Positions 2,730 through 64,000 of a stretch of DNA of 64,000 nt are shown here, one piece after another. The position numbers and the translations under genes were made by a program. This DNA is from Pelagomonas calceolata (taxonomy: Eukaryota). The notes beneath the pieces are model-generated. The model saw nothing but the letters and a program-made list of their open reading frames with translations, was not told the origin of the DNA and did no database searches. Position 1 is the first letter of the stretch; the number at the start of each line of letters is the position of its first letter. The stretch lies in contig CAKKNE010000001.1 in assembly GCA_918797485.1 (NCBI GenBank), positions 2,604,001 to 2,668,000 on the forward strand, in the 5' to 3' direction.

Positions 2730-2862
2730 CGTCTCTTTTTAGGCGCCGGCTGGGTATCCTAGCCGCGCAGGGAGAAGGCCTCTAGAGGCTTGGTGTATGT
2801 CCTTTTTCTTTAGGATATTTCTTCCTTAATACGACCCGTCGCGGGCGAAACAATTCTGGAAC

Positions 2863-3190
2863 GTGGTGTTCCAGAAAACGGCGAAAGACGTCCATCGCGC
2901 GATTGAGTTGTGGGCGAACGAACAGAAATCAGAGACAACTTCCGATCCGGTAGCCGTAGCGACGACGTTCCGCGACAATTACGAGAGAATCGGCGCCGAC
3001 ACACCGCCCCGCGGTAACACGTTCTGCGAGTCCGCGCGCAGACGTCAGGATGAATGCGTCGCCGAGATCGCGCGTCTACCGAGGCATAGAGGCCCCGCCG
3101 GCGGACGCATCAATACCGACGAACTTCGGATGCTCATCGGACGCCTGAAGTACGGGAAAGCGGCCGGCATTGACGCCATTACCATGGGGT
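2863..3190 (+). mobile_element. truncated non-LTR retrotransposon (LINE-like) ORF2 fragment
   Basis: RINTDELRMLIGRLKYGKAAGIDAIT resembles the IT..EV..AI..LK.GKAPGPDGI motif just upstream of the RT core in LINE ORF2 proteins. The similarity stops right after the motif and no RT core follows. Confidence 0.55.
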
Positions 3191-3814
3191 TTGTGACGGG
3201 GAATTGCGTCCGTCAATAAAAGTGACTCAGGATGATAATAGTTAGGAGTGAGAGGCGACTTCCCCCTACTAAGGGGATATCGGAGTACCCTAGGATGGGA
3301 AGTAGCCTAAGCGGGTAATACAAGTACGGGTTGTGCTTGGATACGTCTCAGTTGAACCTTGGGATCCTACTAGACGTGTATTTCCATTGCACTCAAACCA
3401 CGTGCGGCAGGGTGAATTACATACAGACGCTTAAGGGGCTCATTGTGATCTTCCACGAAAGCCTTGCATTCAAACAACGTGTGTTGGATCGTCTCCGAAT
3501 CACGGGAATCGCAACAACATAGCATGACATAGAGAGATGGAGATCAAGGGAAGAACATTACATTTCTGTTACGATTCTACGACTAGTGGACGGGTCCCCT
3601 GGGGGGAGACACCGCGCGTCGCCGATTCATCGGCGGCGGGCATGTGCCACGTCAGAGGTTGCGCAGTCAATGGCTTCCTCCCCATGTTCCCGGCCATGCA
3701 CCCGGTCTGCGTGATTGGTCTGTTGTACTAGACCACTGTGGATAGTCTAGTCTAGACCTAGTTCTGTTGAAAACCGCCAATATCTGTTGAAAACATTTAA
3801 ACATTCTTGCTACC

Positions 3815-4300
3815 TCAGTTTATTACCACAAAGCTAAGCGAATATGCAGTAGTGCAGGCATTTTGGCCAGCATTATAGACTACAATAGTTGCAGATCCGC
3901 CCGAAGTGCCAGGATTTGAACTAACAACCACAATGTGCCCGCCAGTGCATGTGGTCTTCACGTTGACAAAAACCAAGGATGTTGTTACTATTCGTGAATT
4001 AGTTAAAGTGATGGTTTGTGAGCTTCCGCTAGGAACCAAATCACTGCTATCTGAGGTAATTTTACCCGTCATTTTATTTAATGTGACTGCACCGCTTGAA
4101 ACAGTGCCCGAATCATACTCAAACCCATAGACGTAGCTAGAATCAAAGGTAACACCGTTGGAACCACCCTCTAAGGTAAGCGTTGTACCTGCCTCGACAG
4201 TAATTGTAGATGACGCAGCGATAGTGACAGTGCCGGTATCAACTATAAAGGATGTTGCGGATATTGTCAAAGTTGCAGCACCATTTGTTGGATTCTTTAC
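3815..4300 (-). other. non-repetitive C-terminal cap of the giant protein: 8-aa periodic beta segment plus ~100-aa beta-rich terminal domain
   Basis: ...TVTIAASS TITVEAGT TLTLEGGS... followed by GAVTLNKMTGKITSDSSDL...TITLTNSRIVTTSLVFVNV...GSATIVVYNAG...YSLSFVVIN*. Two Cys residues. Confidence 0.75.
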
Positions 4301-7300
4301 ATAGGTCGACCCCGTGGTGCCACCGGTTGATGCTCCGGCCTTGATCTCCACGTTCCCACCGGTGCCGACAGATGCACCGCCGCTGATATAAACCGCACCT
4401 CCGATGCCGCTCGTACCACTGCCTGCTGAAATGCTCACCAAGCCTCCACTACCACCTGTTGCTGTGCCACTACCTATTAGAATAGCGCCTGAGTTGCCCC
4501 CATTTGCGCTGCCCGAGCTAAAGACAAGCCGTCCACTTGAACCAGAGACGCCAGCATTTGCACTCACAAAGAAAATTGCACCACTCGATCCTTGCGTGCC
4601 TTCTCCGCTACATATTACAACTCTGCCACCGGAAGAATGTGTGGACCGTCCCGCCGTGAGAGCTATTGCGCCTCCGCTTCCGCTTGTCCCAGAACCAACC
4701 TCAAAATTAATATCTCCACCTCGGCCTCCCGTAGCAGCACCAGACCCTATAATGATTGCTCCGCTGTTTCCATCCTTTGAACTCCCTGAGCTGAAAATCA
4801 GCCGCCCAGTTGAGCCAGCAACGCCAGCATTTGCAGTCTTTACAATGATGGCACCACTTGATGTTGCTGTACCCTCTCCTGACTGCATGCATATTAGACC
4901 GCCTGTCGCAACAGTGCTTCTTCCTGAGCCGAAGGACAAATGACCACCGGTACCACTAGTACCACTACCCACTGCTATGCGAACGCTGCCACCACGACCA
5001 CCTGTCGCTGCGCCAGACCCCAGTAACAGGGCACCAGAATTTCCCTCTGCTGAACACCCAGAACTGAAGCTCAAGTGCCCACTCACTCCACTCGTTCCGC
5101 TATTTACGCTTCGTAGTACTACTTGCCCACTGCTCTTTCCTGTGCCTTCGCCCGACGCCATCACCATCATGCCACCAGTCTTTACAATACTACGGCCTGC
5201 TGCGAGTGAAATTGATCCACCAGAACCGCTACTTCCACTACCTACTGAAATGACTATCCCACCGCTCCGTCCTGTAGTTGCTGCTGCGCTTCCAATGAGA
5301 ATCGTGCCAGTATTGCCACCACAGGCAGAGCCCGAGCTAAAGACCAGTGCCCCACTTGTACCTTGGGCGCCAGAGTTAGCTGTTTGGATTACTATGGTTC
5401 CGCTGCTCGTCTGTGTACCCTCGCCACTGGCCAAAGAGAGCCCCCCCCCACTCGCAGCCGTGCTCCGGCCCGATTTAAAATGTAATTGACCACCAATCCC
5501 ACTTGTGCCGCTACCAACTGCGGCAGAAGCAGTTCCTCCGCTACCCCCCGTGGCTGTGCCAGAACCAAAAAGCAGGGCGCCGCTGTTGCCCATTTTTGAT
5601 GTACCAGAGCTAAATACCAGTCGGCCCGTTGTGCCTGTTGAACCACTGTTCGCAGAGAAAATCAAAACGGCACCACTGCTTGTAGCTTGTCCCTCCCCAC
5701 CTCTGATAAGGACAAGCCCACCCGTACCAGAAGTGCTTGATCCGCCACGCACAAATACAGCTCCGCCGATCCCGCCCGTAGAACTCGACCCTCCATTTAT
5801 GCATGCACTGCCACCAGTTGCTCCAGCTGCGGAAGTCTGACCTGCTGTCATCAATAGCATTCCACCCGTGCCACTATCACCAGCGCCAACAGTGAGTGAA
5901 ATTGCACCACCTCGACCTGCAGTCGCCACACCACTACTCAAGGTGATTGATCCACTATTACCCGAAGTTGAGCCACCAGTGGAGAGCAAAATACACCCAG
6001 ATGACCCTGTAGTGCCCGAGTTCGATGTTCTGATCGTAATTTGACCGCTGCTTCTTGCAGAGTTCTCTCCACTGTACATGTTGATAAGGCCTCCTGTAGC
6101 AACTGTACTACATCCTGCCTGAAGTTGCAACTTGCCACCCGTACCTGAAGTGCCGCTGCCAACAGCTACATGAACATCCCCACCACGACCTGCAGTGGCT
6201 GTTCCACTGCCGATGAGAATAGCTCCAGAGTTGCCGCTCTTAGTAGTGCCAGTGCTGAAAGCAAGACAACCACTGGTCCCGACGGCCCCACCATTTATCG
6301 TGGCGATTATGACTGCGCCACTTGACGACTGCGTACCTTTGCCACTGCTCAAAATGATAGAACCACCTGTCTTTTTCATCGACTGACCCCCTAATGTGGC
6401 TACCGCCCCCCCGGCGCCGCTCGTGCCGCTGCCGACCGAGATCGAGACCCCGCCGCCCCGCCCGGCGGTCGCGGCCCCGGTCCCGACGCGGATCGCGCCC
6501 GTGTTTCCGCCGCGGGCCGACCCGGAGCTGAAGACCAGCACGCCGCTCGCGCCGCTCGCGCCGGAGTTTGGCGTCGAGATCGCGACCGCTCCGCTGCTCG
6601 TCTGCGTGCCTTCGCCGCTCGTCGCCGAGACCGACCCGCCCGTCGCGATCGTGCTTCTCCCCGCGGCCACCGCCAGCTCCCCGCCGGCGCCGCTCGTGCC
6701 GCTGCCGACCGCCAGCCGGACGGAGCCGCCGCGGCCGGCCGTCGCCGCGCCGGACCCGACCAGCACGGCCCCGCCGTTGCCCGCCTTCGACGTCCCGCTG
6801 CTGAAGGCGAGCCGCCGCTCGCGCCCGAGGTTCCCGCGTTCGCCGTCGCCACCACGACCGCGCCGCTGCTCTTCGCCGAGCCGGCGCCGCCGCGGACGCT
6901 CAGCGCCCCGCCCGTGGCGCCGCTCGAGGACCCCGACTCCATCGCGAGCTCGCCGCCCGCGCCGCTCGTGCCGCTGCCGACGGCGAGGCTGATCGCGCCG
7001 CCGCGCCCGGCGGTCGCGGCCCCCGTGCCGATCTCGATCGCGCCGCTGTTGCCTGTCTTGGAGGTGCCGGTGCTGAAGACCAGCGTCCCGCTCGCGCCGC
7101 TCGCGCCGGCGTTTGCCGTGGCCAGCCTGACCGCCCCGCTCGACGTCTGCGTGCCCTCTCCGCCGCGGAGGGCGACCGCGCCGCCCGTCGCGACCGTGCT
7201 TCGTCCGCTGATTGCGCGAGAGCGCCGCCCGGCGCCGCTCGTGCCGCCGCCCGACGCCGGCGACAACGCGCGCCGCGCCCGCGGCCCGCGGTGGCGGCCC

Positions 7301-10300
7301 GGAGCCGAGCCGGAGCTCGCCAGAGTTGCCCGTCGTCGAGGAGCCGGAGCTAAAGCTCAGTCGTCCGCTCGTGCCGCCCGTTCCGCCGTTGGCGCTCCGC
7401 ACCGCGACCCGTCCGCCGCTCGTCGCCGCGCCCTCGCCCGACGCGACCGCCAGCGCGCCGCCCGTCTTCCCGGCGCTCCGTCCGCCGGCCGCGCTCAGGG
7501 CGCCGCCGGCGCCGCTCGTGCCGCTGCCGACCGAGATCGAGACCCCGCCGCCCCGCCCGGCGGTCGCGGCCCCGGTCCCGACGCGGATCGCGCCCGTGTT
7601 TCCGCCGCGGGCCGACCCGGAGCTGAAGACCAGCACGCCGCTCGCGCCGCTCGCGCCGGAGTTTGGCGTCGAGATCGCGACCGCTCCGCTGCTCGTCTGC
7701 GTGCCTTCGCCGCTCGTCGCCGAGACCGACCCGCCCGTCGCGATCGTGCTTCTCCCCGCGGCCACCGCCAGCTCCCCGCCGGCGCCGCTCGTGCCGCTGC
7801 CGACCGCCAGCCGGACGGAGCCGCCGCGGCCGGCCGTCGCCGCGCCGGACCCGACCAGCACGGCCCCGCCGTTGCCCGCCTTCGACGTCCCGCTGCTGAA
7901 GGCGAGCCGCCCGCTCGCGCCCGAGGTTCCCGCGTTCGCCGTCGCCACCACGACCGCGCCGCTGCTCTTCGCCGAGCCGGCGCCGCCGCGGACGCTCAGC
8001 GCCCCGCCCGTGGCGCCGCTCGAGGACCCCGACTCCATCGCGAGCTCGCCGCCCGCGCCGCTCGTGCCGCTGCCGACGGCGAGGCTGATCGCGCCGCCGC
8101 GCCCGGCGGTCGCGGCCCCCGTGCCGATCTCGATCGCGCCGCTGTTGCCTGTCTTGGAGGTGCCGGTGCTGAAGACCAGCGTCCCGCTCGCGCCGCTCGC
8201 GCCGGCGTTTGCCGTGGCCAGCCTGACCGCCCCGCTCGACGTCTGCGTGCCCTCTCCGCCGCGGAGGGCGACCGCGCCGCCCGTCGCGACCGTGCTTCGT
8301 CCGCTGATTGCCTCGAGAGCGCCGCCGGCGCCGCTCGTGCCGCCGCCGACGCCGACGACAACGCCGCCGCCGCGGCCCGCGGTGGCGGCCCCGGAGCCGA
8401 GCCGGAGCTCGCCAGAGTTGCCCGTCGTCGAGGAGCCGGAGCTAAAGCTCAGTCGTCCGCTCGTGCCGCCCGTTCCGCCGTTGGCGCTCCGCACCGCGAC
8501 CCGTCCGCCGCTCGTCGCCGCGCCCTCGCCCGACGCGACCGCCAGCGCGCCGCCCGTCTTCCCGGCGCTCCGTCCGCCGGCCGCGCTCAGGGCGCCGCCG
8601 GCGCCGCTCGTGCCGCTGCCGACCGAGATCGAGACCCCGCCGCCCCGCCCGGCGGTCGCGGCCCCGGTCCCGACGCGGATCGCGCCCGTGTTTCCGCCGC
8701 GGGCCGACCCGGAGCTGAAGACCAGCACGCCGCTCGCGCCGCTCGCGCCGGAGTTTGGCGTCGAGATCGCGACCGCTCCGCTGCTCGTCTGCGTGCCTTC
8801 GCCGCTTCGTCGCCGAGACCGACCCGCCCGTCGCGATCGTGCTTCTCCCGCGGCCACCGCCAGCTCCCCGCCGGCGCCGCTCGTGCCGCTGCCGACCGCC
8901 AGCCGGACGGAGCCGCCGCGGCCGGCCGTCGCCGCGCCGGACCCGACCAGCACGGCCCCGCCGTTGCCCGCCTTCGACGTCCCGCTGCTGAAGGCGAGCC
9001 GCCGCTTCGCGCCCGAGGTTCCCGCGTTCGCCGTCGCCACCACGACCGCGCCGCTGCTCTTCGCCGAGCCGGCGCCGCCGCGGACGCTCAGCGCCCCGCC
9101 CGTGGCGCCGCTCGAGGAGCCCGACTCCATCGCGAGCTCGCCGCCCGCGCCGCTCGTGCCGCTGCCGACGGCGAGGCTGATCGCGCCGCCGCGCCCGGCG
9201 GTCGCGGCCCCCGTGCCGATCTCGATCGCGCCGCTGTTGCCTGTCTTGGAGGTGCCGGTGCTGAAGACCAGCGTCCCGCTCGCGCCGCTCGCGCCGGCGT
9301 TTGCCGTGGCCAGCCTGACCGCCCCGCTCGACGTCTGCGTGCCCTCTCCGCCGCGGAGGGCGACCGCGCCGCCCGTCGCGACCGTGCTTCGTCCGCTGAT
9401 TGCCTCGAGAGCGCCGCCGGCGCCGCTCGTGCCGCCGCCCGACGCCGGCGACAACGCCGCCGCCCGCGGCCCGCGGTGGCGGCCCGGAGCCGAGCCGGAG
9501 CTCGCCAGAGTTGCCCGTCGTCGAGGAGCCGGAGCTAAAGCTCAGTCGTCCGCTCGTGCCGCCCGTTCCGCCGTTGGCGCTCCGCACCGCGACCCGTCCG
9601 CCGCTTCGTCGCCGCGCCCTCGCCCGACGCGACCGCCAGCGCGCCGCCCGTCTTCCCGGCGCTCCGTCCGCCGGCCGCGCTCAGGGCGCCGCCGGCGCCG
9701 CTCGTGCCGCTGCCGACCGAGATCGAGACCCCGCCGCCCCCGCCCGGCGGTCGCGGCCCGGTCCCGACGCGGATCGCGCCCGTGTTTCCGCCGCGGGCCG
9801 ACCCGGAGCTGAAGACCAGCACGCCGCTCGCGCCGCTCGCGCCGGAGTTTGGCGTCGAGATCGCGACCGCTCCGCTGCTCGTCTGCGTGCCTTCGCCGCT
9901 TCGTCGCCGAGACCGACCCGCCCGTCGCGATCGTGCTTCTCCCCGCGGCCACCGCCAGCTCCCCGCCGGCGCCGCTCGTGCCGCTGCCGACCGCCAGCCG
10001 GACGGAGCCGCCGCGGCCGGCCGTCGCCGCGCCGGACCCGACCAGCACGGCCCCGCCGTTGCCCGCCTTCGACGTCCCGCTGCTGAAGGCGAGCCGCCGC
10101 TTCGCGCCCGAGGTTCCCGCGTTCGCCGTCGCCACCACGACCGCGCCGCTGCTCTTCGCCGAGCCGGCGCCGCCGCGGACGCTCAGCGCCCCGCCCGTGG
10201 CGCCGCTTCGAGGAGCCCGACTCCATCGCGAGCTCGCCGCCCGCGCCGCTTCGTGCCGCTGCCGACGGCGAGGCTGATCGCGCCGCCGCGCCCGGCGGTC

Positions 10301-13300
10301 GCGGCCCCCGTGCCGATCTCGATCGCGCCGCTGTTGCCTGTCTTGGAGGTGCCGGTGCTGAAGACCAGCGTCCCGCTCGCGCCGCTCGCGCCGGCGTTTG
10401 CCGTGGCCAGCCTGACCGCCCCGCTCGACGTCTGCGTGCCCTCTCCGCCGCGGAGGGCGACCGCGCCGCCCGTCGCGACCGTGCTTCGTCCGCTGATTGC
10501 CTCGAGAGCGCCGCCGGCGCCGCTCGTGCCGCCGCCGACGCCGACGACGACGCCGCCGCCGCGGCCCGCGGTGGCGGCCCCGGAGCCGAGCCGGAGCTCG
10601 CCAGAGTTGCCCGTCGTCGAGGAGCCGGAGCTAAAGCTCAGTCGTCCGCTCGTGCCGCCCGTTCCGCCGTTGGCGCTCCGCACCGCGACCCGTCCGCCGC
10701 TCGTCGCCGCGCCCTCGCCCGACGCGACCGCCAGCGCGCCGCCCGTCTTCCCGGCGCTCCGTCCGCCGGCCGCGCTCAGGGCGCCGCCGGCGCCGCTCGT
10801 GCCGCTGCCGACCGAGATCGAGACCCCGCCGCCCCGCCCGGCGGTCGCGGCCCCGGTCCCGACGCGGATCGCGCCCGTGTTTCCGCCGCGGGCCGACCCG
10901 GAGCTGAAGACCAGCACGCCGCTCGCGCCGCTCGCGCCGGAGTTTGGCGTCGAGATCGCGACCGCTCCGCTGCTCGTCTGCGTGCCTTCGCCGCTCGTCG
11001 CCGAGACCGACCCGCCCGTCGCGATCGTGCTTCTCCCCGCGGCCACCGCCAGCTCCCCGCCGGCGCCGCTCGTGCCGCTGCCGACCGCCAGCCGGACGGA
11101 GCCGCCGCGGCCGGCCGTCGCCGCGCCGGACCCGACCAGCACGGCCCCGCCGTTGCCCGCCTTCGACGTCCCGCTGCTGAAGGCGAGCCGCCCGCTCGCG
11201 CCCGAGGTTCCCGCGTTCGCCGTCGCCACCACGACCGCGCCGCTGCTCTTCGCCGAGCCGGCGCCGCCGCGGACGCTCAGCGCCCCGCCCGTGGCGCCGC
11301 TCGAGGAGCCCGACTCCATCGCGAGCTCGCCGCCCGCGCCGCTCGTGCCGCTGCCGACGGCGAGGCTGATCGCGCCGCCGCGCCCGGCGGTCGCGGCCCC
11401 GTGCCGATCTCGATCGCGCCGCTGTTGCCTGTCTTGGAGGTGCCGGTGCTGAAGACCAGCGTCCCTTCGCGCCGCTCGCGCCCGGCGTTTGCCGTGGCCA
11501 GCCTGACCGCCCCGCTCGACGTCTGCGTGCCCTCTCCGCCGCGGAGGGCGACCGCGCCGCCCGTCGCGACCGTGCTTCGTCCGCTGATTGCCTCGAGAGC
11601 GCCGCCGGCGCCGCTCGTGCCGCCGCCGACGCCGACGACGACGCCGCCGCGCCGCGGCCAGCGGTGGCGGCCCCGAGCCGAGCCGGAGCTCGCCAGAGTT
11701 GCCCGTCGTCGAGGAGCCGGAGCTAAAGCTCAGTCGTCCGCTCGTGCCGCCCGTTCCGCCGTTGGCGCTCCGCACCGCGACCCGTCCGCCGCTTCGTCGC
11801 CGCGCCCTCGCCCGCGCGACCGCCAGCGCGCCGCCCGTCTTCCCGGCGCTCCGTCCGCCGGCCGCGCTCAGGGCGCCGCCGGCGCCGCTCGTGCCGCTGC
11901 CGACCGAGATCGAGACCCCGCCGCCCCGCCCGGCGGTCGCGGCCCGGTCCCGACGCGGATCGCGCCCGTGTTTCCGCCGCGGGCCGACCCGGAGCTGAAG
12001 ACCAGCACGCCGCTCGCGCCGCTCGCGCCGGAGTTTGGCGTCGAGATCGCGACCGCTCCGCTGCTCGTCTGCGTGCCTTCGCCGCTTCGTCGCCGAGACC
12101 GACCCGCCCGTCGCGATCGTGCTTCTCCCCGCGGCCACCGCCAGCTCCCCCGCCGGCGCCGCTCGTGCCGCTGCCGACCGCCAGCCGGACGGAGCCGCCG
12201 CGGCCGGCCGTCGCCGCGCCGGACCCGACCAGCACGGCCCGCCGTTGCCCGCCTTCGACGTCCGCTGCTGAAGGCGAGCCGCCCGCTCGCGCCCGAGGTT
12301 CCCGCGTTCGCCGTCGCCACCACGACCGCGCCGCTGCTCTTCGCCGAGCCGGCGCCGCCGCGGACGCTCAGCGCCCCGCCCGTGGCGCCGCTCGAGGAGC
12401 CCGACTCCATCGCGAGCTCGCCGCCCGCGCCGCTCGTGCCGCTGCCGACGGCGAGGCTGATCGCGCCGCCGCGCCCGGCGGTCGCGGCCCCGTGCCGATC
12501 TCGATCGCGCCGCTGTTGCCTGTCTTGAGGTGCCGGTGCTGAAGACCAGCGTCCCTTCGCGCCGCTCGCGCCGGCGTTTGCCGTGGCCAGCCTGACCGCC
12601 CGCTCGACGTCTGCGTGCCCTCTCCGCCGCGGAGGGCGACCGCGCCGCCCGTCGCGACCGTGCTTCGTCCGCTGATTGCCTCGAGAGCGCCGCCGGCGCC
12701 GCTCGTGCCGCCGCCGACGCCGACGACAACGCCGCCGCCGCGGCCCGCGGTGGCGGCCCCGGAGCCGAGCCGGAGCTCGCCAGAGTTGCCCGTCGTCGAG
12801 GAGCCGGAGCTAAAGCTCAGTCGTCCGCTCGTGCCGCCCGTTCCGCCGTTGGCGCTCCGCACCGCGACCCGTCCGCCGCTCGTCGCCGCGCCCTCGCCCG
12901 ACGCGACCGCCAGCGCGCCGCCCGTCTTCCCGGCGCTCCGTCCGCCGGCCGCGCTCAGGGCGCCGCCGGCGCCGCTCGTGCCGCTGCCGACCGAGATCGA
13001 GACCCCGCCGCCCCGCCCGGCGGTCGCGGCCCCGGTCCCGACGCGGATCGCGCCCGTGTTTCCGCCGCGGGCCGACCCGGAGCTGAAGACCAGCACGCCG
13101 CTCGCGCCGCTCGCGCCGGAGTTTGGCGTCGAGATCGCGACCGCTCCGCTGCTCGTCTGCGTGCCTTCGCCGCTCGTCGCCGAGACCGACCCGCCCGTCG
13201 CGATCGTGCTTCTCCCCGCGGCCACCGCCAGCTCCCCGCCGGCGCCGCTCGTGCCGCTGCCGACCGCCAGCCGGACGGAGCCGCCGCGGCCGGCCGTCGC

Positions 13301-52300: not shown

Positions 52301-55300
52301 ACCAGATCGGCCCGCCGTCGCGGCGCCAGATCCAACGAGAAGCAGCCCGCTGTTCCCCCTTAGACGAGCGGAGCTGAACGCCAGCTGACCGCTCGCGCCC
52401 GCCGCGCCGCCGTTCGCCGTACGAATCAATATCGCCCCGCCGCTCTTCTGCGTGCCCTCGCCACTTTCCGCCGACAGGCACCCCACTCGCGCCGGCGCTG
52501 CGCCCAGAGGCCAGCGACACCAGGCCACCGGATCCGCTCGTGCCGCTTCCGACGCGCACGCGCACCGCGCCCCGCTTCCGCCGGTCGAGGCTCCAGATCC
52601 GAGGTCCAGCGCGCCGCTGTTTCCATCCGCCCGACGAGCCGGGCTGAACGCGAGCCGTCCGCTCGAGCCGACGACGCCGCCGTTCGCGGACCGCAGCGAG
52701 ATTCCGCCGCTGCTCGACGCCGTGCCCTCCCCTCCGGCTATAGCCGCGGTCCCTCCGGACGCCGACGTGCTACGACCAGACTGGAGGCGCACCGAGCCGC
52801 CAGTGCCGCTCGTCCCGCTCCCCGCGCTCACGACGACCGCGCCGCCGCGACCGCCGGTCGCCGCGCCGCTGCCGAGCAGCACCGCGCCGCTGTTGCCTCC
52901 CGAGGCAGACCCGGAGCTAAATGTCAACGAGCCGCTCGACCCAGAGACGCCAGAGTTGCTTGTCTGGATAACCACGCCGCCGCTGCTCGTTTGCGTACCT
53001 TCGCCGCCGCCGACCACCACGGCGCCGCCCGTCTTTGCCGTGCTTCGCCCGCCGGCGAGACTCATCGCGCCGCCGGCGCCGCTCGTCCCGCTGCCGACGC
53101 TCAGCACAACGCCGCCGCCGCGGCCCGCGGTGCTCGCGCCGCTCCCGACGCAGATGGCGCCGGAGTTGCCGCCCCTGCTCGACCCGGAGCTAAACACGAG
53201 CCGACCGCTCGTCCCAGCGCCGCCGCCGTTTGCCGACGCCACGCTGACGGACCCGCTGCTCGTCTGCGTGCCCTCGCCGCTGCCGACCACCACGGCGCCG
53301 CCGCACTTGCATAATGATCTGCCTGACTGAATCTGCATATTTCCCCCTGACGCGCTTGTGCCACTTCCAACAGTTAACTTTACAATGCCACCTTGTCCAC
53401 GAGAAGCAACACCGGAACCAATGGAAATACTTCCACTGTTACCGCCCATGGCAGTACCAGAACTGAACGTAATTCTTCCGCTGCTTCCTGCTTCGCCGCT
53501 GTTTGAACTTCTCAACAACAGAGCACCGCTACTAGAAGCAGTTCCTTCGCCACCTGCTACAACAAGCTGACCGCCAGTCAAGGCAGAGCTTGCACCCGAG
53601 TGAAAGCAGCAATCCCCCCCTGTGCCGCTTGAGCCACTACCAACAGAAATATGTACCCGTCCGCCGCGACCGCCGGTCGCCGCGCCCGAGCCAATCAAGA
53701 TGGACCCGCTATTCCCCGCGTTCGCCGTCCCGGAGCTAAACGCCAGCAGCCCGCTCGAGCCCGATGCCCCTCCGTTTGCGCTTCCAACGCGCACCGCGCC
53801 GCTGCTCGTCTGCGTGCCCTCGCCGCTGGTCGCGACGAGCGTCCCGCCGGTCGCCGCGGTGCTCCGACCCGCGGCTGCGCTCAGCCTGCCGCCGGATCCG
53901 CTCGTCCCGCTCCCCGCGCTCACGACGACCGCGCCGCCGCGACCGCCGGTCGCTGCGCCGCTGCCGAGCAGCACCGCGCCGCTGTTTCCGCCGGCCGCGC
54001 TTCCCGAGCTAAACACGAGACGCCCGCTAGCCCCCGCCGACCCGCCATTGCTCGATCGGATCGCACAAGCGCCGCTGCTTGTTGCGGTGCCTTCGCCGCT
54101 CTTGATACGGACGGCGCCGCCACTCGCGACGGTGCTGCGACCGGATGCCATCGAGGCCGCACCCCCAGATCCGCTCGTCCCGCTTCCGACCGACATCACA
54201 ATGGCACCAGCACGTCCCCCAGTGGCCGCGCCCGTGCCCACGGTCAGACTCCCACTGTTCCCAGATACCGCAGACCCAGAACTAAACGCGAGCGACCCGC
54301 TCGCGCCCGACGTTCCGCCATTCGCAGAGCCGACGACAACAGCGCCGCTGCTCGTCGCGGTGCCCTCCCCGGCCGCGAACGTGACGCTCCCGCCGGTCCT
54401 CGACGTGCTGCGGCCAGCTCCAAAATACGCAGCGCCGCCAGATCCGCTCGTCCGCTGCCCGCGCTGGCGCTCACCGCCCCACCGCGACCGCCAGACGCCG
54501 CTCGGAGCCAATCGAGATACCGCCGCCGTTCCCACTCTTGGCCGAGCCGAGCTGAACGCCAGCAGCCCGCTCGCGCGGGACGCACCGCCGTTGGCACTCG
54601 CGGCGACCACCGCGCCCGAGCTAGCTTCTCCGTCCCTTCGCCAGCGCAGACCGCAACGTGACCTCCCGTCGCCGCCGCGCTTCTGCCGGACGCAAACGAC
54701 AACGCCCCACCGGCGCTGCTCGTCCCGCTGCCGACCGCGACGCTCACGTCGCCGCCCCGCCCGCTCGTCGCCGGCCCGGACCCTATCGTGACGGTCCCGC
54801 TGTTGCCCGCCGACGAGCTTCCGGAGCTGAACGCCAGGCGGCCGCTCGCTCCCGACGCGCCGCCGTTCGCGGCGCGGACGGCGACGATTCCGCTGCTCGT
54901 CTGCGTGCCCTCTCCGGATGCGACGCCGAGTCCTCCGCCAGTCGCGACAGTACTGCGCCCAGACTGGAGACTCAATGCGCCACCGGCGCCGCTCGTTCCG
55001 CTTCCCGCGCTGATCCCAACGCCACCAGATCGGCCCGCCGTCGCGGCGCCAGATCCAACTAGAAGCAGCCCGCTGTTCCCCCTTAGACGAGCGGAGCTGA
55101 ACGCCAGCTGACCGCTCGCGCCCGCCGCGCCGCCGTTCGCCGTACGAATCAATATCGCCCCGCCGCTCTTCTGCGTGCCCTCGCCACTTTCCGCCGACAG
55201 GCACCCCCCACTCGCGCCGGCGCTGCGCCCAGAGGCCAGCGACACCAGGCCACCGGATCCGCTCGTGCCGCTTCCGACGCGCACGCGCACCGCGCCCCCG

Positions 55301-58300
55301 CTTCCGCCGGTCGAGGCTCCAGATCCGAGGTCCAGCGCGCCGCTGTTTCCATCCGCCGACGAGCGGGCTGACGCGAGCCGTCCGCTCGAGCCGACGACGC
55401 CGCCGTTCGCGGACCGCAGCGAGATTCCGCCGCTGCTCGACGCCGTGCCCTCCCCTCCGGCTATAGCCGCGGTCCCTCCGGACGCCGACGTGCTACGACC
55501 AGACTGGAGGCGCACCGAGCCGCCAGTGCCGCTCGTCCCGCTCCCCGCGCTCACGACGACCGCGCCGCCGCGACCGCCGGTCGCCGCGCCGCTGCCGAGC
55601 AGCACCGCGCCGCTGTTGCCTCCCGAGGCAGACCCGGAGCTAAATGTCAACGAGCCGCTCGACCCAGAGACGCCAGAGTTGCTTGTCTGGATAACCACGC
55701 CGCCGCTGCTCGTTTGCGTACCTTCGCCGCCGCCGACCACCACGGCGCCGCCCGTCTTTGCCGTGCTTCGCCCACCGGCGAGACTCATCGCGCCGCCGGC
55801 GCCGCTCGTCCCGCTGCCGACGCTCAGCACAACGCCGCCGCCGCGGCCCGCGGTGCTCGCGCCGCTCCCGACGCAGATGGCGCCGGAGTTGCCGCCCCTG
55901 CTCGACCCGGAGCTAAACACGAGCCGACCGCTCGTCCCAGCGCCGCCGCCGTTTGCCGACGCCACGCTGACGGACCCGCTGCTCGTCTGCGTGCCCTCGC
56001 CGCTGCCGACCACCACGGCGCCGCCGCTCGCTGCCGTCGCGCGTCCGGACTGCACCTGAAGAACGCCCCCTGATCCACTTGTCCCACTGCCGATGTGCAA
56101 GTGTAAAGCCCCACCTCGTCCATCAGTAGCAGCACCAGTTCCAACTAGAAGGCTGCCGCTATTTCCACCCCTGCTTGACCCAGAACTGAAGATAAGCAAC
56201 CCGCTCGACCCATCTTCCCCGCTGTTGGTTGAGCAGAGAGTTATACTCCCGCTAGTGGAGCTGGTTCCCTCTCCTGAGCATATTGAAACCTGCCCGCCAC
56301 TTGACATCGTGCTTCGACCAGCATTCAAATTTAAGCTTCCACCCGCACCGCTCGTACCACGCCCAACATGTATGCCTACCAATCCACCTGCGCCACCACT
56401 CGAATAACCAGATCCAATTAAAACAGTGCCCGAATTACCAGACTTTGAGCTTCCCGAACTGAAGATGAGTCTGCCACTCGATCCAGCAATTCCACTATTG
56501 ACAGTCACAAGCGTGACCATCCCGCTGCTGGAACCCGTACCCTCCCCGCTACACACAACTACTCTGCCGCCGGTGTGTCTCGTTCCCCTGCCCGCCTGCA
56601 TTGCCAGGATACCACCTTCGCCACTCGTGCCACTTCCTACATGTAGCGAGATAGAACCGCCGCGACCAAATGTAGCTGGTCCGGTTCCAAAAGTCAAAGT
56701 GCCGCTATTGCCAGACGAAGAGGAGCCTGTGCTAAATAGGAGGTGGCCACTTGTTCCTAAGTCGCCACTATTGGCGGTAGACACTCTTATTGTGCCGCTG
56801 CTTGACGCTGTTCCCTCTCCGCTGTTCATGTAAATTGCTCCGCCGGTTCCTGCAACACTGCGGCCTGCCATAAGTTTAATGCAGCCCCCAGCTGAACTTG
56901 CGCCACTCCCTACTGTCATCATTATTGCCCCTCCAACACCACCCGTCGCTGATCCAGATCCAAGCAAAATTGACCCTGTGTTTCCGCCAGACGATGATCC
57001 AGTGCTGAAAATCAGTACCCCACTTGAGCCAGCAACGCCACCATTTCCGCTGAGAATAGTAACACTGCCGCTAGAGGTGGCAGTTCCTTCCCCTGTGAAG
57101 ATGCACACGGCGCCTCCAGTCCTTGAGGTGGATCTGCCACCAATTAAAATCATGCCACCGCCCCTTCCACTCGTGCCAGAGCCCAGGGCGACATTCAACA
57201 GTCCTGCCCGTCCGCACGAGGACGCACCAGTTCCAATAAGAACAGCCCCAGAATTTCCCCGTTTTGCTGTCCCACTGCTGAAAACTAGCTTGCCACTCCC
57301 ACCAGATGCACCGGTGTTGGGTGTGATTACAGTTATGGAGCCGCTGCTTGTCTGGGCACCTTGTCCACTTTGCAACGACATTAGACCACCTGTTGCCATG
57401 CCAAAACCTGCTGCCGCTCGCAACATACCCCCCTCTCCACTTGTCCCCGCACCAACCGTGATGAAAATAGCCCCACCGCTCCCACCCAAGGCACTACCGG
57501 TACCCATACTCAGAGCACCACTATTCCCCTCTTTGGCAGACCCAGAGCTAAAAACCAATTTCCCACTGACACCTGTGAGTCCGGAGTTTGCGGACCCAAA
57601 ATGGATTAAACCACTACTAGAAGCAGTGCCCTCACCAGATAGGGCGACAATAGCACCTCCCGTACAATGATTGCTCGAACCGGCCAAGAGCTCCACTTGA
57701 CCTCCCGAGCCGCTTGTGCCGCTACCAGCAGTCATGATTAAGCCACCTGCACGACCACCAGACGAAGCACCTGTTCCTAGCGATATTGCTCCACTATTTC
57801 CTCCGCATGCGGTTCCGGAGCTAAATATGAGCCGTCCACTACCTCCTCCGGTGCCGCTATTACTTGTTCTAGTAACTACAGTTCCACTGCTGGTTTGCTT
57901 ACCTTCGCCACTCGTAATTGTAATTAAACCTCCGCTGGCAAGCATGGATAGACCCGATTGAAGGATAAGCCTACCACCAGATCCGCTTGTTCCACTGCCG
58001 ACGCTACATATCAAATCGCCCGCTCGGCCATTACTTGCCGACCCAGACCCTAGAAGGAGTTGGCCACTATTTCCAGACTTAGAAGTGCCAGAGCTAAACA
58101 CAAGTGATCCGCTTGTGCCACTAATGCCGCCATTGGAACTCGTGATGATTATACTGCCACTGCTAGTGGCGGTGCCCTCGCCGCTTTGTACCGCAAACTC
58201 GCCGCCTGTCTTAGCACATCCACGGCCAGACAACATGCAAACAGCACCTCCCGATCCACTGGTGCCACTGCCTGTGCTCAGTATAATTTCACCACCTCGG

Positions 58301-61300
58301 CCGCCCGTTGCGGTCCCGGTGCCAATATGGATGGCGCCACTGTTCCCCTGCTTCGCACTACCGGAACTAAAAATGAGCCTACCGCTCTCTCCTCTCGATC
58401 CTGCATTAGGTGAGCAGGTCAGAATTGCACCGCTGCTCGACGCTGTACCTTCACCTGCCGCAACAGCTACAGATCCACCCGTGCTGGAGCTGCTTCGACC
58501 AGCCAGTATAAACACTGTACCACCTATCCCACTAGTCCCGCTTCCCACACTAGCCACAACAGCTCCACCCCGACCTCCAGTTGAAGCACCCGATCCAAGA
58601 GAAAGACTCCCACTATTTCCTCCGCCGACGGTTCCAGAGCTAAAAGTGAGCCTCCCACTCGCTCCCGCGCCGCCACCATTTGATGTCAAAACACTTAACA
58701 TCCCGCTGCTCGTGGTGGTCCCTTCACCAGAGCTCACAAGAATAAATCCACCAGTGCTCGCACTAGACGTGCTCCGACCGCCCATGAGTGCCACTGCCCC
58801 GCCAACACCGCTCGTGCCACTCCCAGAGCTTATAGTAATCTGTCCGGACCGACCACCTGTGGATGAACCAGTCCCAATACACAGTGCACCACTATTTCCA
58901 TATCTTGCGGTGCCTGAGCTGAACGACAGTTTTCCACTCGAGCCAGTGGCACCAGAATTTGCGGTTGATATAGATATTTTGCCAGAGCTGGTTGTTGTGC
59001 CTTCGCCACTGAGAACTAAAACTTCACCACCTGAAGACGGATTATTACGTCCGGCCTGCAGGCGCAAAAAGCCGCCGTAGCCGCTCGTACCACTACCAAC
59101 ACTAAACGTCATTGAACCCCCCCTGCCACATGAGGATGTGCCCGAGCCTAGAAATACCGAGCCACTATTCCCATTTTTTGCCGAGCCTGAGCTAAATACA
59201 AGTCGCCCACTTGACCCGGCCACTCCTGCATTACTGCTGCATATAATTACGTTCCCGCTGCTTGTTTGTGTGCCTTCGCCCGATTTGACGACAAGAGAAC
59301 CACCTGATGCAATTGCGCTTCGACCAGACGATAAGCCGACCTCACCGCCAGAGCCACTTGTGCCACGGCCCACGCTTATAAGTATTGCGCCACTGCGTCC
59401 AGATGTACTTGCGCCACTTCCAATAACGATAGTTCCTGAATTCCCCATAGCGCTCGTTCCGGAACTAAACGCGAGTTGCCCGCTGCTGCCGGTTACACCG
59501 CCATTTGCCGATGCAACACGAACTGACCCGCTGCTTGTTTGCGTGCCCTCGCCGCTACTGATTGCAATACTTCCACCACTAGATGCCGTCGAGCGCCCAG
59601 AGTGCACCTGGACGATACCGCCCGATCCGCTCGTCCCGCTACCGATACTCAAGCATACTGCACCGCCTCGACCAGCTGTTGCGCTCCCCGAACCAACTAA
59701 GACGTATCCACTGTTCCCTGCGTTTGCAGATCCCGAGCTAAAGACCAATAGTCCGCTAGAGCCAGAACCACCGGCGTCGGCGCTTGCTATGCACACCTCT
59801 CCACTACTAGAGGCGGTACCTTCCCCGCTTGACATGCAAAGTGCCCCGCCCGTGGCGTCAGTGGTTCGTCCCGAAAATAGGCACACTTGTCCACCAGCAC
59901 CACTTGTCCCACTACCAGAGCTCACCAGGATAGAGCCACTACGTCCGCCAGTAACAGAGCCTGATCCGAGCAAAATGGCCCCCGAATTCCCTGATTTTGC
60001 CGAGCCAGAACTGAAAACAAGCCGACCACTGGAGCCCGCGGATCCGGAGTTGGTACTTAAGAGGAGAATCGCGCCGCTGCTTGTAGTGATGCCTTCCCCA
60101 GATGCCATGATTACAGCTCCACCACTTTGAACCGCGCTGCGTCCGGCCCAGGTGCCAATAGAACCGCCGGTCCCACTCGTGCCTTTCCCAGCGCTGAGCC
60201 TTACAGCACCTCCGCGTCCACCACAGCTCGCCCCGGACCCAAGACTGATCATTCCAGAGTTCCCATCTTTGCTTGTACCAGAGCTAAAAGCGAGTCTGCC
60301 GCTACCCCCTCCTACACCACCATTTGCCGATGCCACTTGCACAGATCCACTGCTAGTTTGTGTGCCCTCCCCGCCTTTGACTGTCACGCTCCCGCCGCTA
60401 GACGTAGATGACCTCCCTGACTGAAGTCGCATCTGGCCGCCAGGACCACTTGTGCCGCTACCGACGCTTAGAGTGATGGCACCTCCACTTCCACCAGTTG
60501 AGGGTGCGGTACCGAGATATATGGATCCACTATTCCCATTTGCAGCTGATCCAGTGCTAAATACAAGCGCGCCACTTGTTCCAGCAAGGCCACTGTTGGC
60601 GGTGTGAATCAATGCGGCACCACTGCTTGTAGCAGTCCCTTCACCGCTTTGCACAACTAGCTTGCCGCCTGTAACTACAGAACCGCGTCCCGCCTGTAGA
60701 GTAAGTGCGCCACCAGTGCCGCTGGTTCCGCTCCCGACAGCCACAATGATAGCTCCACCCGCCCCGTCAGTGGCCGCCCCAGTCCCTAGGAGCAGCGCGC
60801 CACTGTTTCCCACTTTGCTAGTCCCCGAACTAAATGCAAGGCGCCCGCTAGTGCCCGCGGCTCCACCATTAGCAGTCCGAATAAATACTTTGCCACTGCT
60901 TGTTTGTGTACCCTCACCAGACTCAATAGCCACAAAACCACCAGAAGCAGCGCTGCTCCTGCCCGCATTCATACTGATTGAGGCACCGGCACCACTAGTG
61001 CCACTTCCAGCTGAAACGTGAATACCTCCTCCACTCCCTCCTGTCGCCGCTCCCGTCCCGAGAAAAAGCGCACCACTATTTCCAACGTTGGATGATCCTG
61101 AGCTAAAGGCAAGTCTACCGCTTGAACCAGAAACACCAGAGTTTGCTGTCGTCATGATCACTGCACCGCTACTGGCCATCGCCCCATCTCCTGTATGGAA
61201 CACCAGCGCGCCGCCGGTGAGAAACTCGCTGCGACCAGCCAAGATACTCACGAGGCCACCAGTGCCACTAGTTCCGCTGCCTACACTTACCATCACCTGG

Positions 61301-64000
61301 CCACCACGACCAGCTGTCATGGCACCAGTGCCAATGCTAAGTTGACCACTATTCCCTGCCGCAGCTGTTCCCGTGGAGAAGACGAGTCGACCGCTTGCGC
61401 CGATCGCCCCGGTGTTTGCCGTCGAGATATGAACACTACCTGAAGTCGCTAACGATCCTTCTCCGCTACAAATGCGTAACATGCCACCCGTCTGAACAGT
61501 ACTTCGTCCGGCTAGCAGACTGACTAAGCCGCCGACACCGCTGGTGCCACTACCGACGCTTACCCACACGGGCCCTCCCGCACCATCTGTAGCGGCGCCC
61601 GTACCCACGAATATGCTACCTGTGTTGCCAAAACTCGATGTTCCCGAAGAGAATATGAGACGGCCGCTAGCTCCGCTTGCGCCTGCATTTGCCGTGACAA
61701 TATTGAGGGTTCCGCTGCTTGTTGTAGTGCCTTCGCCAGTCGTAATCTCAACGCACCCCCCTGTCGTCGTGGTACTGCGCCCAGATAGGAGGCTAACAAT
61801 CCCACCATCACCGCTAGTCCCACTGCCTACGGTGATGCCGATGGCACCGCCCCTGCCATCGGTGGAGGCGCCTGAACCAAAGGACAACATGCCACTATTG
61901 CCACCTATCGCGATGCCGGAGCTAAAAAGGAGGAAGCCACTAGATCCCACATCACCCGCATTGGGAGTCGAAAAGAACAGACTACCACTCGATGAAGTTG
62001 AACCTTCGCCGCTAGCAACGATGATTGTTCCACCTGTTGATGTTGTACCGCGGCCTGACCGCAGGGTAAGCTCACCTCCAGCGCCGCTGGTGCCACTCCC
62101 GACTGCCAATGTCACCCACCCACCTTGTCCCTGCGTCGCTGCGCCCGAGCCGATGTATATTCCACCGCTGTTGCCACCCTTCGCCGTGCCTGAGCTAAAG
62201 GTTAGTACGCCCGAAGAGCCGTCGACCCCGCTATTAATTGTCGCCACGCATACAGACCCGCTACTTGTGTGCGTGCCCTCGCCGCTCCCCACATATATGA
62301 CCCCGCCAGTGGACTGTGTTGAGCGACCAGAGCACACGCTCACTCCACCCCCGCTACCCGAAGTGCCGCTGCCAACAACGAGGGAAAGACTCCCTGAACG
62401 ACCATTTGTCGCCGCGCCTGTTCCAATGTATATAGCCCCACTATTTGCATCTTTAGATGTTCCAGAGCTAAAAGCCAGACGGCCGCTACTACCCCCAATT
62501 CCGGAGTTTGCCGTGGTCAAGAGCACCGATCCGCTGCTGGTTGCCGTGCCTTCACCACTCATAATCGACATCTTCCCACCAGTTCTCATCTCACTGCGAC
62601 CTGCCTGCAGCGTCATCATACCGCCCTTACCGGATGTGCCACTTCCCACAGTCAGGACGAGCGAACCAGCGCGACCGTCCGTTGCCGCACCCGAACCCAT
62701 ACACATGTCGCCGCTATTCCCTCCACTTGCAGTACCAGATGAAAAGACAAGGCGACCACTTGCACCACTTGTGCCAGCATTTGGTACGCAAACGAAGATG
62801 GACCCGCTACTTGTCGCTGTCCCCTCACCACTTGCTGCAGACAACTCGCCACCAGTCTGGACGATAGACCCTCCTGCCATTATCCAAATCCCGCCTCCCA
62901 CTCCCGATGTGCCGCTCCCAGCAGTTATGCCGATGGCTCCACCTCGTCCGCCTGTCGCGGCGCCCGTACCCAAGAATAGCATGCCGGAATTGCCCGCCTT
63001 GCTAGATCCACTACTAAAAATAAGATATCCGCTCGCACCAGAAGCACCACCATTCGCAGAAAGAACTATTACCGTCCCACTGCTAGTTGCCGTACCTTCA
63101 CCGCTTGCGAGCACCACCGAACCGCCGGAGCATGTGCCACTCTGGCCGGCACAGAGCGAGATGTCTCCACCGCGACCGCTTGTGCCGCTACCCACCGTGA
63201 GAAACACCGCGCCGCCCTGTCCACCTGTCGTGGTGCTAGTACCAAGCAAAATATCGCCACTGTTACCGCTTTTCGCAGATCCAGAGGAAAAGATCAGACA
63301 ACCAGAGGAGCCTGTAGTGCCGGAATTACTAGTGCGGACAGTGATCAAGCCGCTGCTACTCGAAGCACCTACTCCGCTCTCAATTGCAACCGAGCCACCT
63401 GTCCTCGTGGTCGAGAGGCCAGCGTCTAGGACAAGCGCACCACCCGATCCACTTGTGCCGCTACCAACAGAAATATATATAGCACCGCCTCTTCCGCCTG
63501 TTGCCGCTCCGCTTCCCAAGAGCAAACTGCCACTATTTCCATTACTTGCTGTGCCAGAAGAAAACACGAGGTGTCCACTTGACCCAGCCACGCCACTGTT
63601 TCCGGTTCTGAATGTTATGCATCCGCTGCTTGTCGCTGTCCCTTCGCCGCTAAGAAGCGAGAGAACTCCACCGGTCGCGGCCAGAGCATTGCTCGATCCG
63701 CTCTGTAAACCCAGAACACCGCCGTCTCCGCTAGTGCCGCTACCCACCGTCATATACATGGCGCCACCACGCCCCCCCGTAGCGCTGCCGCTGCCCAATA
63801 GCAGGTTTCCAGTGTTTCCCGTTTTTGAGGTTCCCGAAGAAAACGACAAACGACCGCTCGTGCCTGCGGCGCCAGCGTTGGGCGTGCGTATGCTGACTGA
63901 TCCGGAGGAGGAGGCGGTGCCTTCTCCGGACTCGATTTTGATCAGCCCACCGGTGGAAACCGCGGACTGTCCAGCTAGTAAACTCATTGAGCCACCGGCC
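3815..64000 (-). CDS. giant Gly/Ser/Ala/Thr-rich beta-repeat protein, >20,000 aa, 5'-partial, frameshifted in this assembly
   Basis: The same 91-aa repeat is read on the minus strand continuously from the window edge to ~4300. The frame is open at the edge (...AGGS-MSLLAG, so Met 63987 is internal). TGA stop at 3815-3817. No splice-like interruptions were seen. Diverged units keep the protein consensus while third positions vary freely. Confidence 0.85.
4300..6402 (-). repeat. ~7.5 diverged 273-bp units (C-proximal, moderate GC, no frameshifts)
   Basis: Translation keeps the GEGTxTSSG, FSSG, GNSG and GSGTSG motifs at ~91-aa spacing. The nucleotide sequence is unique and A/T third positions are common. 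Confidence 0.9.
6403..35707 (-). repeat. coding tandem array A: ~27 near-identical copies of a 1092-bp (4 x 273 bp; 364 aa) unit
   Basis: The landmark cgactccatcgcgagc (ELAMESG) occurs 27 times at ~1092-bp spacing from ~6930 to ~35350. Shadow ORFs recur with the same spacing. GC is extremely high. Confidence 0.95.
35681..56039 (-). repeat. coding tandem array B: 8 copies of a basic 2457-bp (9 x 273 bp; 819 aa) unit with 8-, 10- and 12-unit variants
   Basis: The landmark gtgccctcgccactttccgccgacagg occurs at 37473, 40742, 43196, 45649, 47823, 50274, 52452 and 55175. Spacings of 3269, 2454, 2453, 2174, 2451, 2178 and 2723 correspond to about 12, 9, 9, 8, 9, 8 and 10 units. Confidence 0.92.
53305..53660 (-). 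other. single-copy lower-GC in-frame repeat island inside array B
   Basis: 356 bp of unique sequence encoding RVHISVGSGSSGTGGDCCFHSG...GRSLCK. It replaces ~83 bp of the standard copy, a net gain of 273 bp. Confidence 0.9.
56040..64000 (-). repeat. ~29 diverged 273-bp units (N-proximal, moderate GC, no frameshifts)
   Basis: About 8 kb of uninterrupted frame (part of ORF 54244-63987). Every unit is unique in nucleotide sequence but conserves the 91-aa consensus. Confidence 0.92.

Follow-up and report, generated by a model that had tools for sequence, protein, structure and literature searches.

A giant repeat gene on the minus strand

The stretch of DNA analysed here, a window of 64,000 nucleotides from Pelagomonas calceolata (GenBank assembly GCA_918797485.1, contig CAKKNE010000001.1, positions 2,604,001 to 2,668,000), carries on its minus strand a single long repeat-coding frame that ends with a stop codon at 3815-3817 and is still open past the window edge at 64000. 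This 3' part of a giant coding sequence (3815..64000; all gene features given below lie on the same strand) extends further upstream, comprises about 20,080 codons when assembly frameshifts are allowed for, and is free of in-frame stops over 19,939 plus 145 codon steps. A frameshift-aware alignment with a 91-column profile, built from 27 clean units, placed 218 repeat units between positions 63900 and about 4255, again with zero in-frame stops, and revealed 180 single-base frame changes. The six rungs of each 91-residue unit comprise one with 16 residues and five with 15. Where the protein is diverged, the autocorrelation of residues is 0.50 for a lag of 91 and 0.27 for a lag of 15, with 0.21-0.27 at the rung multiples 30, 61 and 76 and about 0.08-0.19 at most other lags. 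The motif G-x-h-x-h-x-x-G, where h is a hydrophobic residue, occurs 1032 times as compared with 157 +/- 10 times in 50 shuffles. An earlier interpretation of the window made without database searches, hereafter the sequence-only reading, had assigned this motif to all rungs. That is true for rungs 2-6, which fit in 185 of 191, 177 of 181, 207 of 214, 195 of 206 and 212 of 212 instances (95-100% of those scorable), but wrong for the 16-residue rung 1, which misses the full motif in all but 2 of 209 instances because x-N stands where the other rungs have G; the shorter G-x-h-x-h is present in 207 of 209. The nested hierarchy proposed in the same reading was borne out for the 15-residue rungs, the 91-residue units and a block of four units (364 residues), and its estimate of about 1300 rungs agrees with the 1,308 counted in the window. 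The additional block of 819 residues proved irregular, containing either eight or nine units, and does not stand as a regular unit.

Clustering of the units at 93% DNA identity resolved four zones. The first in the direction of transcription (55975..64000) contains 29 diverged units, for which the nearest other unit is 56-70% identical at the DNA level; its GC content at third codon positions (GC3) is about 0.49 and it is devoid of frameshifts. Metagenome contigs yielded seven loci, of which L001 (rearranged) and L006 (which looks chimeric) were left out; the sequence of the first zone is present in four of the others, L002-L005. The second zone (35827..55974, GC3 about 0.80) is an array of unit classes E-M that runs from 55974 to 35827 in five complete nine-unit copies, three copies of eight units and one remnant, with two unique units inside it at 53797-53252. 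The third (6317..35826, GC3 about 0.93) is an array of the 364-residue super-unit B-A-C-D with a transitional unit at each end. This super-unit is repeated about 26 times from 35553 to 6590, with a DNA identity of 0.96 at a lag of four units versus 0.66-0.67 elsewhere. Seven diverged C-terminal units followed by a few shorter rungs form the last zone (4307..6316, GC3 0.40), one unit carrying a 33-residue insertion equivalent to two extra rungs; this zone is colinear with a further metagenome contig, L007 (72% DNA identity, dN 0.19, dS 1.17). The jump of GC3 in the arrays (6300-56000) is what GC-biased gene conversion would be expected to produce among repeats that recombine.

Gly, Ser, Ala and Thr together account for 71% of the residues, Ser and Thr for 27%. 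The 466 Asn residues yield a single N-glycosylation sequon; Asn nearly always precedes x-G, which suggests a structural role at corners. The second half of each rung lacks a conserved large hydrophobic residue. Neither the window repeats nor the C-terminal tip described below scored above cut-off in Pfam, and the repeat profile returned zero matches among PDB sequences, a result that is uninformative about the fold. Of the Atlas clusters, 'Peptidase S74 domain-containing protein' lies nearest to the bare repeat (0.98; the recognition value of 1001 makes this a weak match).

Array frameshifts and transcription

All 180 frameshifts fall within units 29-210 and none affects the 36 diverged units. 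Wherever they were checked, they are assembly errors, because they are confined to near-identical arrays, no in-frame stop occurs and the frame was restored at 8 of 8 sites. RNA reads of run X21 restored it at 54451 (73 of 93 reads), 54502 (80 of 92), 54546 (98 of 105) and 54623 (56 of 56). Site 6814 was restored by 8 of 12 RNA reads in X21 and 6 of 6 in X22, site 7297 by both of two RNA reads along with contigs of both DNA runs, and sites 7246 and 7268 by one contig of run X9 only. The independent metagenome contig L002 contains an open frame of 3,612 residues through the first nine-unit block, with gaps relative to the window at matching places. A pseudogene is ruled out by the complete lack of in-frame stops and the restoration of the frame by reads. 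The depth of DNA contigs was 2535-3614 in the four-unit array against 184 in single-copy sequence (14-20x) and 916-1257 in the nine-unit array against 187 (5-7x); while such ratios are no true copy numbers, they agree roughly with the assembled 26 and 8 copies when GC loss is allowed for.

Poly(A) RNA reads are nearly all oriented as minus-strand RNA and cover both ends of the gene. RNA depth peaks at 1,100 near the stop codon and declines to about 20 by 6,300, while the stretch 56,000-64,000 is covered at an even depth of 13-42 with no supported splice joint. The depth peak lies beside 3600..3814 and drops below about 3600 (814-1103 at 3578-3903 in X21), so that this region is likely the 3' untranslated region. 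In the nine-unit array, RNA depth reaches 4-71% of the per-copy expectation. Depth in the arrays tracks GC content without reaching significance (r -0.59, p 0.22, 6 bins). The 3' stretch was present at 0.97-1.00 of its words in 20 of the 24 public runs listed, which stem from 11 studies; 7 of these 20 are environmental RNA according to their record entries.

Upstream exons and a Peptidase_S74 domain

Three metagenome contigs, L003, L004 and L005 (100, 100 and 96% identical to the query), reach 10 kb past the window. In all three, four predicted introns of 84-163 bases connect five exons, and the joined frame, which has no stop, contributes 3,275 residues upstream. The intron borders are GT-AG, with one GC-AG in L003 and L004; the same intron (L003:3082-3183, L005:3078-3188) has a GC donor in these two contigs and a GT donor in L005. 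Between L003 and L005 introns are 66-80% and exons 90-93% identical. Upstream dN/dS is 0.02-0.09 (0.005/0.26 in the S74 region introduced below, 0.019/0.22 in the repeat exon), demonstrating that the gene is under purifying selection. The known length of the protein is at least about 23,360 residues, encoded over at least 70 kb, and the 10 kb flank of L003-L005 ends before the true N-terminus is reached. The gene is transcribed in a marine eukaryote and likely encodes a protein of more than 23,000 residues. With at least 23,000 residues it would rank among the very large proteins, for which PKZILLA-1 with 45,212 residues provides a reference (bioRxiv 10.1101/2024.01.29.577497; here and below, statements on published systems refer to the portions of the cited sources that were available).

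The upstream residues are organised in rungs too, with a higher acidic content and more variation in length; a single globular region is the exception. This region is a Peptidase_S74 domain, with Pfam scores of 40.3 bits in L003 and 39.4 bits in L005 at a cut-off of 22 bits. It also matches the ICA domain structure of MYRF (7dc3, E 7.7e-6) and 15 PHROGs families, mostly tail fibres, down to E 2.5e-13. The sequence SDERIK, with its Ser-Lys pair, is intact in all three contigs and lies about 3,030 residues upstream of the window. It conforms to SDxxxK, which S74 proteins use as their catalytic motif (PMC10769870), and in MYRF the Ser-Lys dyad cleaves only in the trimeric state (PMC8326128). At least 244 residues, mostly rungs, precede the motif and about 23,100 follow it. 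The domain does not form the C-terminal end of the chain here, and the usual order would apply only to the unseen N-terminal part. A homologue search with the S74 region found none among proteins of 524-1668 residues. In L003, the upstream rungs are acidic (Asp plus Glu about 8%), and the window is basic (Arg plus Lys 5.7%, Asp plus Glu 2.3%); going by composition, a rod made from this chain would bear a charge gradient along its length.

Predicted fold of the repeats

AlphaFold2 modelled three units as a single chain with a best pLDDT of 64, while the other four models reached 32-57. As a homotrimer, the same 273 residues gave an ipSAE of 0.78 (0.76-0.79 across runs) versus 0.00 for the best of three controls, with a pLDDT of 84-85, about 2,260 inter-chain contacts and agreement between runs in at least 78% of the contacts. 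In calibration, the ipSAE mark was reached by 21 of 30 same-chain pairs and 0 of 23 single chains for microbial proteins and by 17 of 29 and 0 of 30, respectively, for eukaryotic ones. Among the 25 best-placed contacts, 14 connect residue i with i+14 to i+17, nine connect i with i+7 to i+10, one connects i with i and one i with i+24. The predicted structure is an intertwined triple beta-helix, a fully swapped prism with loops at its corners in which every rung n rests on rung n+1 of the adjacent chain.

The sequence-only reading had favoured a beta-solenoid rod. In the single-chain form of this fold, each chain would wrap around itself, every turn taking up one to three rungs, and the rod would measure 0.2 to 0.6 micrometre. 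A 15-residue period and alternating hydrophobic residues suit solenoid coils, 91 residues can be split as 2 x 3 or 3 x 2 rungs, and the best monomer model is the one with the modest pLDDT of 64. Against this stand the poor scores of the remaining four monomer models, the trimer at a pLDDT of 85 with its stacking between chains, and the resemblance of the C-terminal neck and tip to trimeric phage parts. The S74 trimerisation chaperone encoded upstream likewise supports a triple beta-helix over a one-chain solenoid. From the earlier proposal we therefore retain the cross-beta rod with one layer per rung and not the single-chain class; the fold is probably not a single-chain solenoid, and we consider that alternative very unlikely. 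The comparison of monomer and trimer models, suggested in the sequence-only reading along with a structure search, came out modest for the former and confident for the latter. Foldseek returned zero PDB matches for the monomer model, which is uninformative about the fold. A VIA structure search against 48,161 chains retrieved five, with Z between 2.8 and 4.5; four of them are hyaluronidases or hyaluronate lyases, and the fifth is a phage tailspike. All five are beta-helical and score low, the best being HylP1 (2c3f; Z 4.5, root-mean-square deviation 4.4, 158 aligned residues). HylP1 is a triple-stranded beta-helix.

A second alternative keeps the triple beta-helix but places two short strands in each rung, as in the glycofibril protein TLP-12, and would double the length of the rod to about 1.3-1.4 micrometre. 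TLP-12 fits two strands into 12 residues with a rise of 9.6 A per repeat (bioRxiv 10.1101/2025.09.30.679562), the Ser/Thr-rich half of the rung could form the second strand, and 9 of the 25 best contacts are at half-rung offsets. However, two strands would split the half-rung and full-rung offsets between different chains, and in the model both classes (23 of 23 contacts) point to the same neighbouring chain. On geometric grounds this argues for one strand per rung, and the rung's second half offers no conserved large hydrophobic residue. We regard two strands per rung as very unlikely.

C-terminal neck and tip

The last rung is followed by a neck of short beta-strands without loops (4151..4306), which weakly resembles the beta-helical end of the phiKZ spike gp164 (6orj residues 234-284; phmmer E 0.0045, and E 0.02 with profile A5). 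The gp164 spike itself is a trimer and contains a beta-helical domain (PMC13250141). At the end of the chain, about 89 residues (3818..4084) are predicted to form a beta-sandwich tip, which in a low-confidence model (pLDDT 46) resembles phage fibre tips and H-type lectin domains. The best VIA matches of this model are discoidin I (Z 6.1, root-mean-square deviation 3.0, 83 aligned residues), adhesin FdeC (6.0), pyocin and phage fibre tips (5.2-5.7, with the R1 pyocin fibre at 5.7) and the tip of Bdellovibrio Bd2133 (5.2), all of them in the range of common arrangements. A viral library gave six matches at E 3e-5 to 8e-4, all uncharacterised phage and giant-virus proteins, the Atlas gave viral hypothetical clusters (0.94-0.95) and K1-lyase_C (0.90), and PHROGs contributed phrog_16264 (E 0.008) as its sole match. 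A homologue search with the tip alone retrieved eight unnamed environmental fragments that are 51-99% identical, with database entries being short 'hypothetical' fragments; when the last rungs were included and longer proteins were searched, none was found. A sugar-binding function of the modelled tip is a lead.

The phage-like domains at both ends, the high content of Gly, Ser, Ala and Thr and the many assembly frameshifts could also be taken to indicate a Gly/Ser/Thr chain that is disordered in the manner of mucins, or else a viral insertion in decay. We find this extremely hard to reconcile with glycines that are invariant and a hydrophobic pattern that is strict in units only about 55% alike, with a confidently modelled trimer and strong purifying selection, with spliceosomal introns and poly(A) RNA, and with the fact that scans for close relatives found none in viral contigs or annotated phages. 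A viral or prokaryotic origin of this copy is not supported either: scans of viral contigs, species genomes and annotated phages, which detect close relatives only, confirmed no relative.

Proposed assembly and length of the fibre

We consider it probable that the window represents the last 60 kb of a transcribed eukaryotic gene, and that its 218 repeats let three copies of the chain twist around each other as a triple beta-helix fibre that is likely extracellular and likely about 0.7 micrometre long. In this fibre, each 15-residue rung would contribute one beta-strand (G-x-h-x-h), with the hydrophobic residues pointing into a three-fold core, and a corner loop of Gly, Ser and Thr. In keeping with known S74 proteins, the ICA domain would bring three chains into register and trimerise them. 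By analogy, it may fold the beta-helix upstream of itself and cut the chain just before the catalytic serine. After cleavage, the N-terminal piece would be free, and the remaining product, about 23,100 residues long, would consist of the ICA domain, about 1,490 rungs, the neck and the lectin-like tip. These downstream residues would zip into a triple beta-helix nucleated at the ICA domain, the tip, or both. The fibre would be secreted, its Ser/Thr-rich loops would likely be glycosylated as in TLP-12, the type with dense O-glycans on its repeat serines, and the tip might bind a surface or a partner.

The number of rungs would set the length of the rod, and the gene may, as the sequence-only reading proposed, set the length of a surface fibre. 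At 0.48 nm per rung, half of the 9.6 A measured for two strands in TLP-12 and thus a rise that we infer for this protein, the 1,308 rungs of the window correspond to 628 nm, in accordance with the rod of about 0.6 micron anticipated in the sequence-only reading. The 178-192 rungs between the ICA domain and the window bring the total to 713-720 nm. Homogenised arrays account for 182 of the 218 units, and most of the rod length is therefore of recent origin; tandem amplification of the four-unit (about 11.5 nm) and nine-unit (about 26 nm) blocks would have supplied them, and unequal crossing-over could change the length of the rod by 24 or 54 rungs at a time. More tentatively, and with considerable doubt, we put forward a self-processing fibre polyprotein: an internal phage-type chaperone would cut the giant chain into two triple beta-helix fibres, or free a lectin-tipped fibre of 0.7 micrometre from its base, and the gene would act as a length ruler, the length having been multiplied several times by tandem amplification in steps of 11.5 and 26 nm.

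Several points weigh against the triple beta-helix fibre as laid out above. The rise per rung is carried over from another protein and the trimer is a model; its calibration had two copies of a chain and not three, and only 1 of 7 eukaryotic calibration cases lacking an older solved relative reached the mark, so that memory of solved triple beta-helices may contribute to the trimer score. The S74 domain resides upstream of the window array, whereas it is C-terminal to the folded helix in phages, Bdellovibrio and TLP-12 candidates, and may serve only the unseen N-terminal part of the protein. The introns that join its exon to the window were read from DNA and not from RNA. The available parts of the protein show neither a signal peptide nor a membrane helix (highest 19-residue hydropathy 1.47). 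Reads or contigs confirm the frame at 8 of the 180 frameshifts, and the raw RNA reads (runs X21-X23) originate from a single sample. Finally, RNA depth in the four-unit array is only 0.4-10% of the per-copy expectation, although one mRNA that is continuous across the arrays remains likely.

This low depth, along with the fact that neither array is spanned by any read or contig, leads to a further explanation: the fold may be right while a single product of 23,000 residues does not exist, the arrays being mis-sized, mis-joined or spliced out and the ends belonging to different fibre genes. L007, which diverges from the window by a dS of 1.17 in its last 830 codons, opens with 105 bases that are 99-100% identical to array unit B, meaning that a second gene may share the array. 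This stretch (L007:1-105) reflects either gene conversion between two fibre genes sharing one homogenised array or a mis-joined contig end. On the other hand, the DNA depth of the arrays is close to the assembled copy counts and the unique ends match each other at 184 and 187, RNA reads in both arrays are on the strand of the gene and restore its frame, and the RNA depth, which declines from the 3' end, levels with the upstream plateau at about 20. We therefore judge it unlikely that the gene lacks a single product.

Comparison with known systems

The closest known system is the TLP-12 glycofibril with its alveolate candidates of about 20,000 residues, found in Amoebophrya and other alveolates, e.g. 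A0A8J1ZHD7 with 19,853 residues (bioRxiv 10.1101/2025.09.30.679562). In both cases a eukaryotic chain of about 20,000 residues with short Gly/Ser repeats carries an ICA domain in the same chain, lacks a known function and assembles, here by prediction, into a triangular beta prism of three chains. TLP-12 is built from a 12-residue GSxxSx7 repeat with two strands and has a C-terminal ICA domain, whereas the fibre gene described here encodes a 15-16-residue rung with one predicted strand, six rung types per 91-residue unit, and an internal ICA domain upstream of the main array, the chain ending in a phage-like neck and tip. Among 273 occurrences of GSxxS in the repeats we counted one tandem GSxxSx7 pair, and the periods are 15 and 91. 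The protein is thus not a TLP-12 member, because the 12-residue motif is absent and the ICA domain is internal.

Phage tailspikes and fibres with S74/ICA domains (K1F endosialidase, T5 pb1) and the MAT fibres of Bdellovibrio share the SDxxxK motif of S74 as well as an intertwined trimeric beta-helix and a beta-sandwich tip, both predicted in our case (PMC10769870). MAT fibres also have a signal peptide followed by a conserved domain of about 130 residues, and the corresponding part of our protein would lie upstream of the contigs. The known fibres are short (the full-length Bd3182 model measures 550 A), and in those with S74 this domain closes the chain (PMC10769870); the gene studied here, in contrast, is a spliced eukaryotic gene specifying a rod more than ten times longer with an internal S74 domain plus a tip. 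The eukaryotic membrane transcription factors MYRF and MrfA provide a precedent for an internal, trimerising ICA domain with Ser-Lys self-cleavage, putative here, and much protein downstream of it (PMC8326128). The stalk of MYRF, however, is short, and the protein includes a DNA-binding domain and a membrane helix (PMC8326128); none of these features was seen in the available parts of our protein. The streptococcal phage hyaluronidase HylP1 (2c3f) and phiKZ gp164 (6orj) are likewise beta-helical tail parts; the matches are weak and imply no enzyme site, and both proteins have a length of a few hundred residues. In the literature on giant proteins of algae or protists with S74 domains or triple beta-helices, as far as covered by sources that mostly exclude subscription journals, we encountered only TLP-12, MYRF, phage fibres and mentions in algal viruses (PMC12906663), and a literature listing revealed no link to stramenopile flagellar hairs. 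We found no prior description of this repeat family in the literature searched, and its copies in databases are unnamed fragments.

Neighbourhood of the gene

In L007, the fibre gene is followed by genes for a G-protein beta subunit (5243-6064) and a kinase-like protein (7989-11159). The gene neighbourhood in the window differs, because the G-beta gene is absent from it. Here, the region next to the 3' end (2700-3740) is pieced together from multi-copy segments; many read ends are loose there, and the depth at 3578-3740 is very high. A short open reading frame on the plus strand (2863-3219) has no Pfam match and contains G-K-A-A-G-I-D, a motif of non-LTR (long terminal repeat) retrotransposon reverse transcriptases. 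Positions 1-2700 of the plus strand hold one or more genes with a GC content of 80%, rich in Ala, Arg and Pro and with intron-like AT-rich gaps near 700-780 and 1150-1290; one stretch reads like an Ig-type domain, again without a match in Pfam.

Implications

To our knowledge, most sub-micron hairs and fibrils of marine microbial eukaryotes lack a known protein, and cryo-electron microscopy of environmental samples now reveals fibrils that lack a known gene. The gene described here predicts a three-fold beta prism with a rise of 4.8 A, a six-rung period of 2.9 nm and a length near 0.7 micrometre. It can be sought directly, as it recurs at 97-100% word identity in public runs of 11 studies. It also exemplifies how such genes escape notice, with 180 frameshifts in the arrays, false wherever checked, and fragmentary entries for the tip. 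Its internal S74 domain offers a test case for whether a chaperone can template a helix downstream of itself. If the self-processing polyprotein proposed above is true, its gene would be both blueprint and ruler for a hair or tether that is visible on the surface of a marine microbe of wide distribution.

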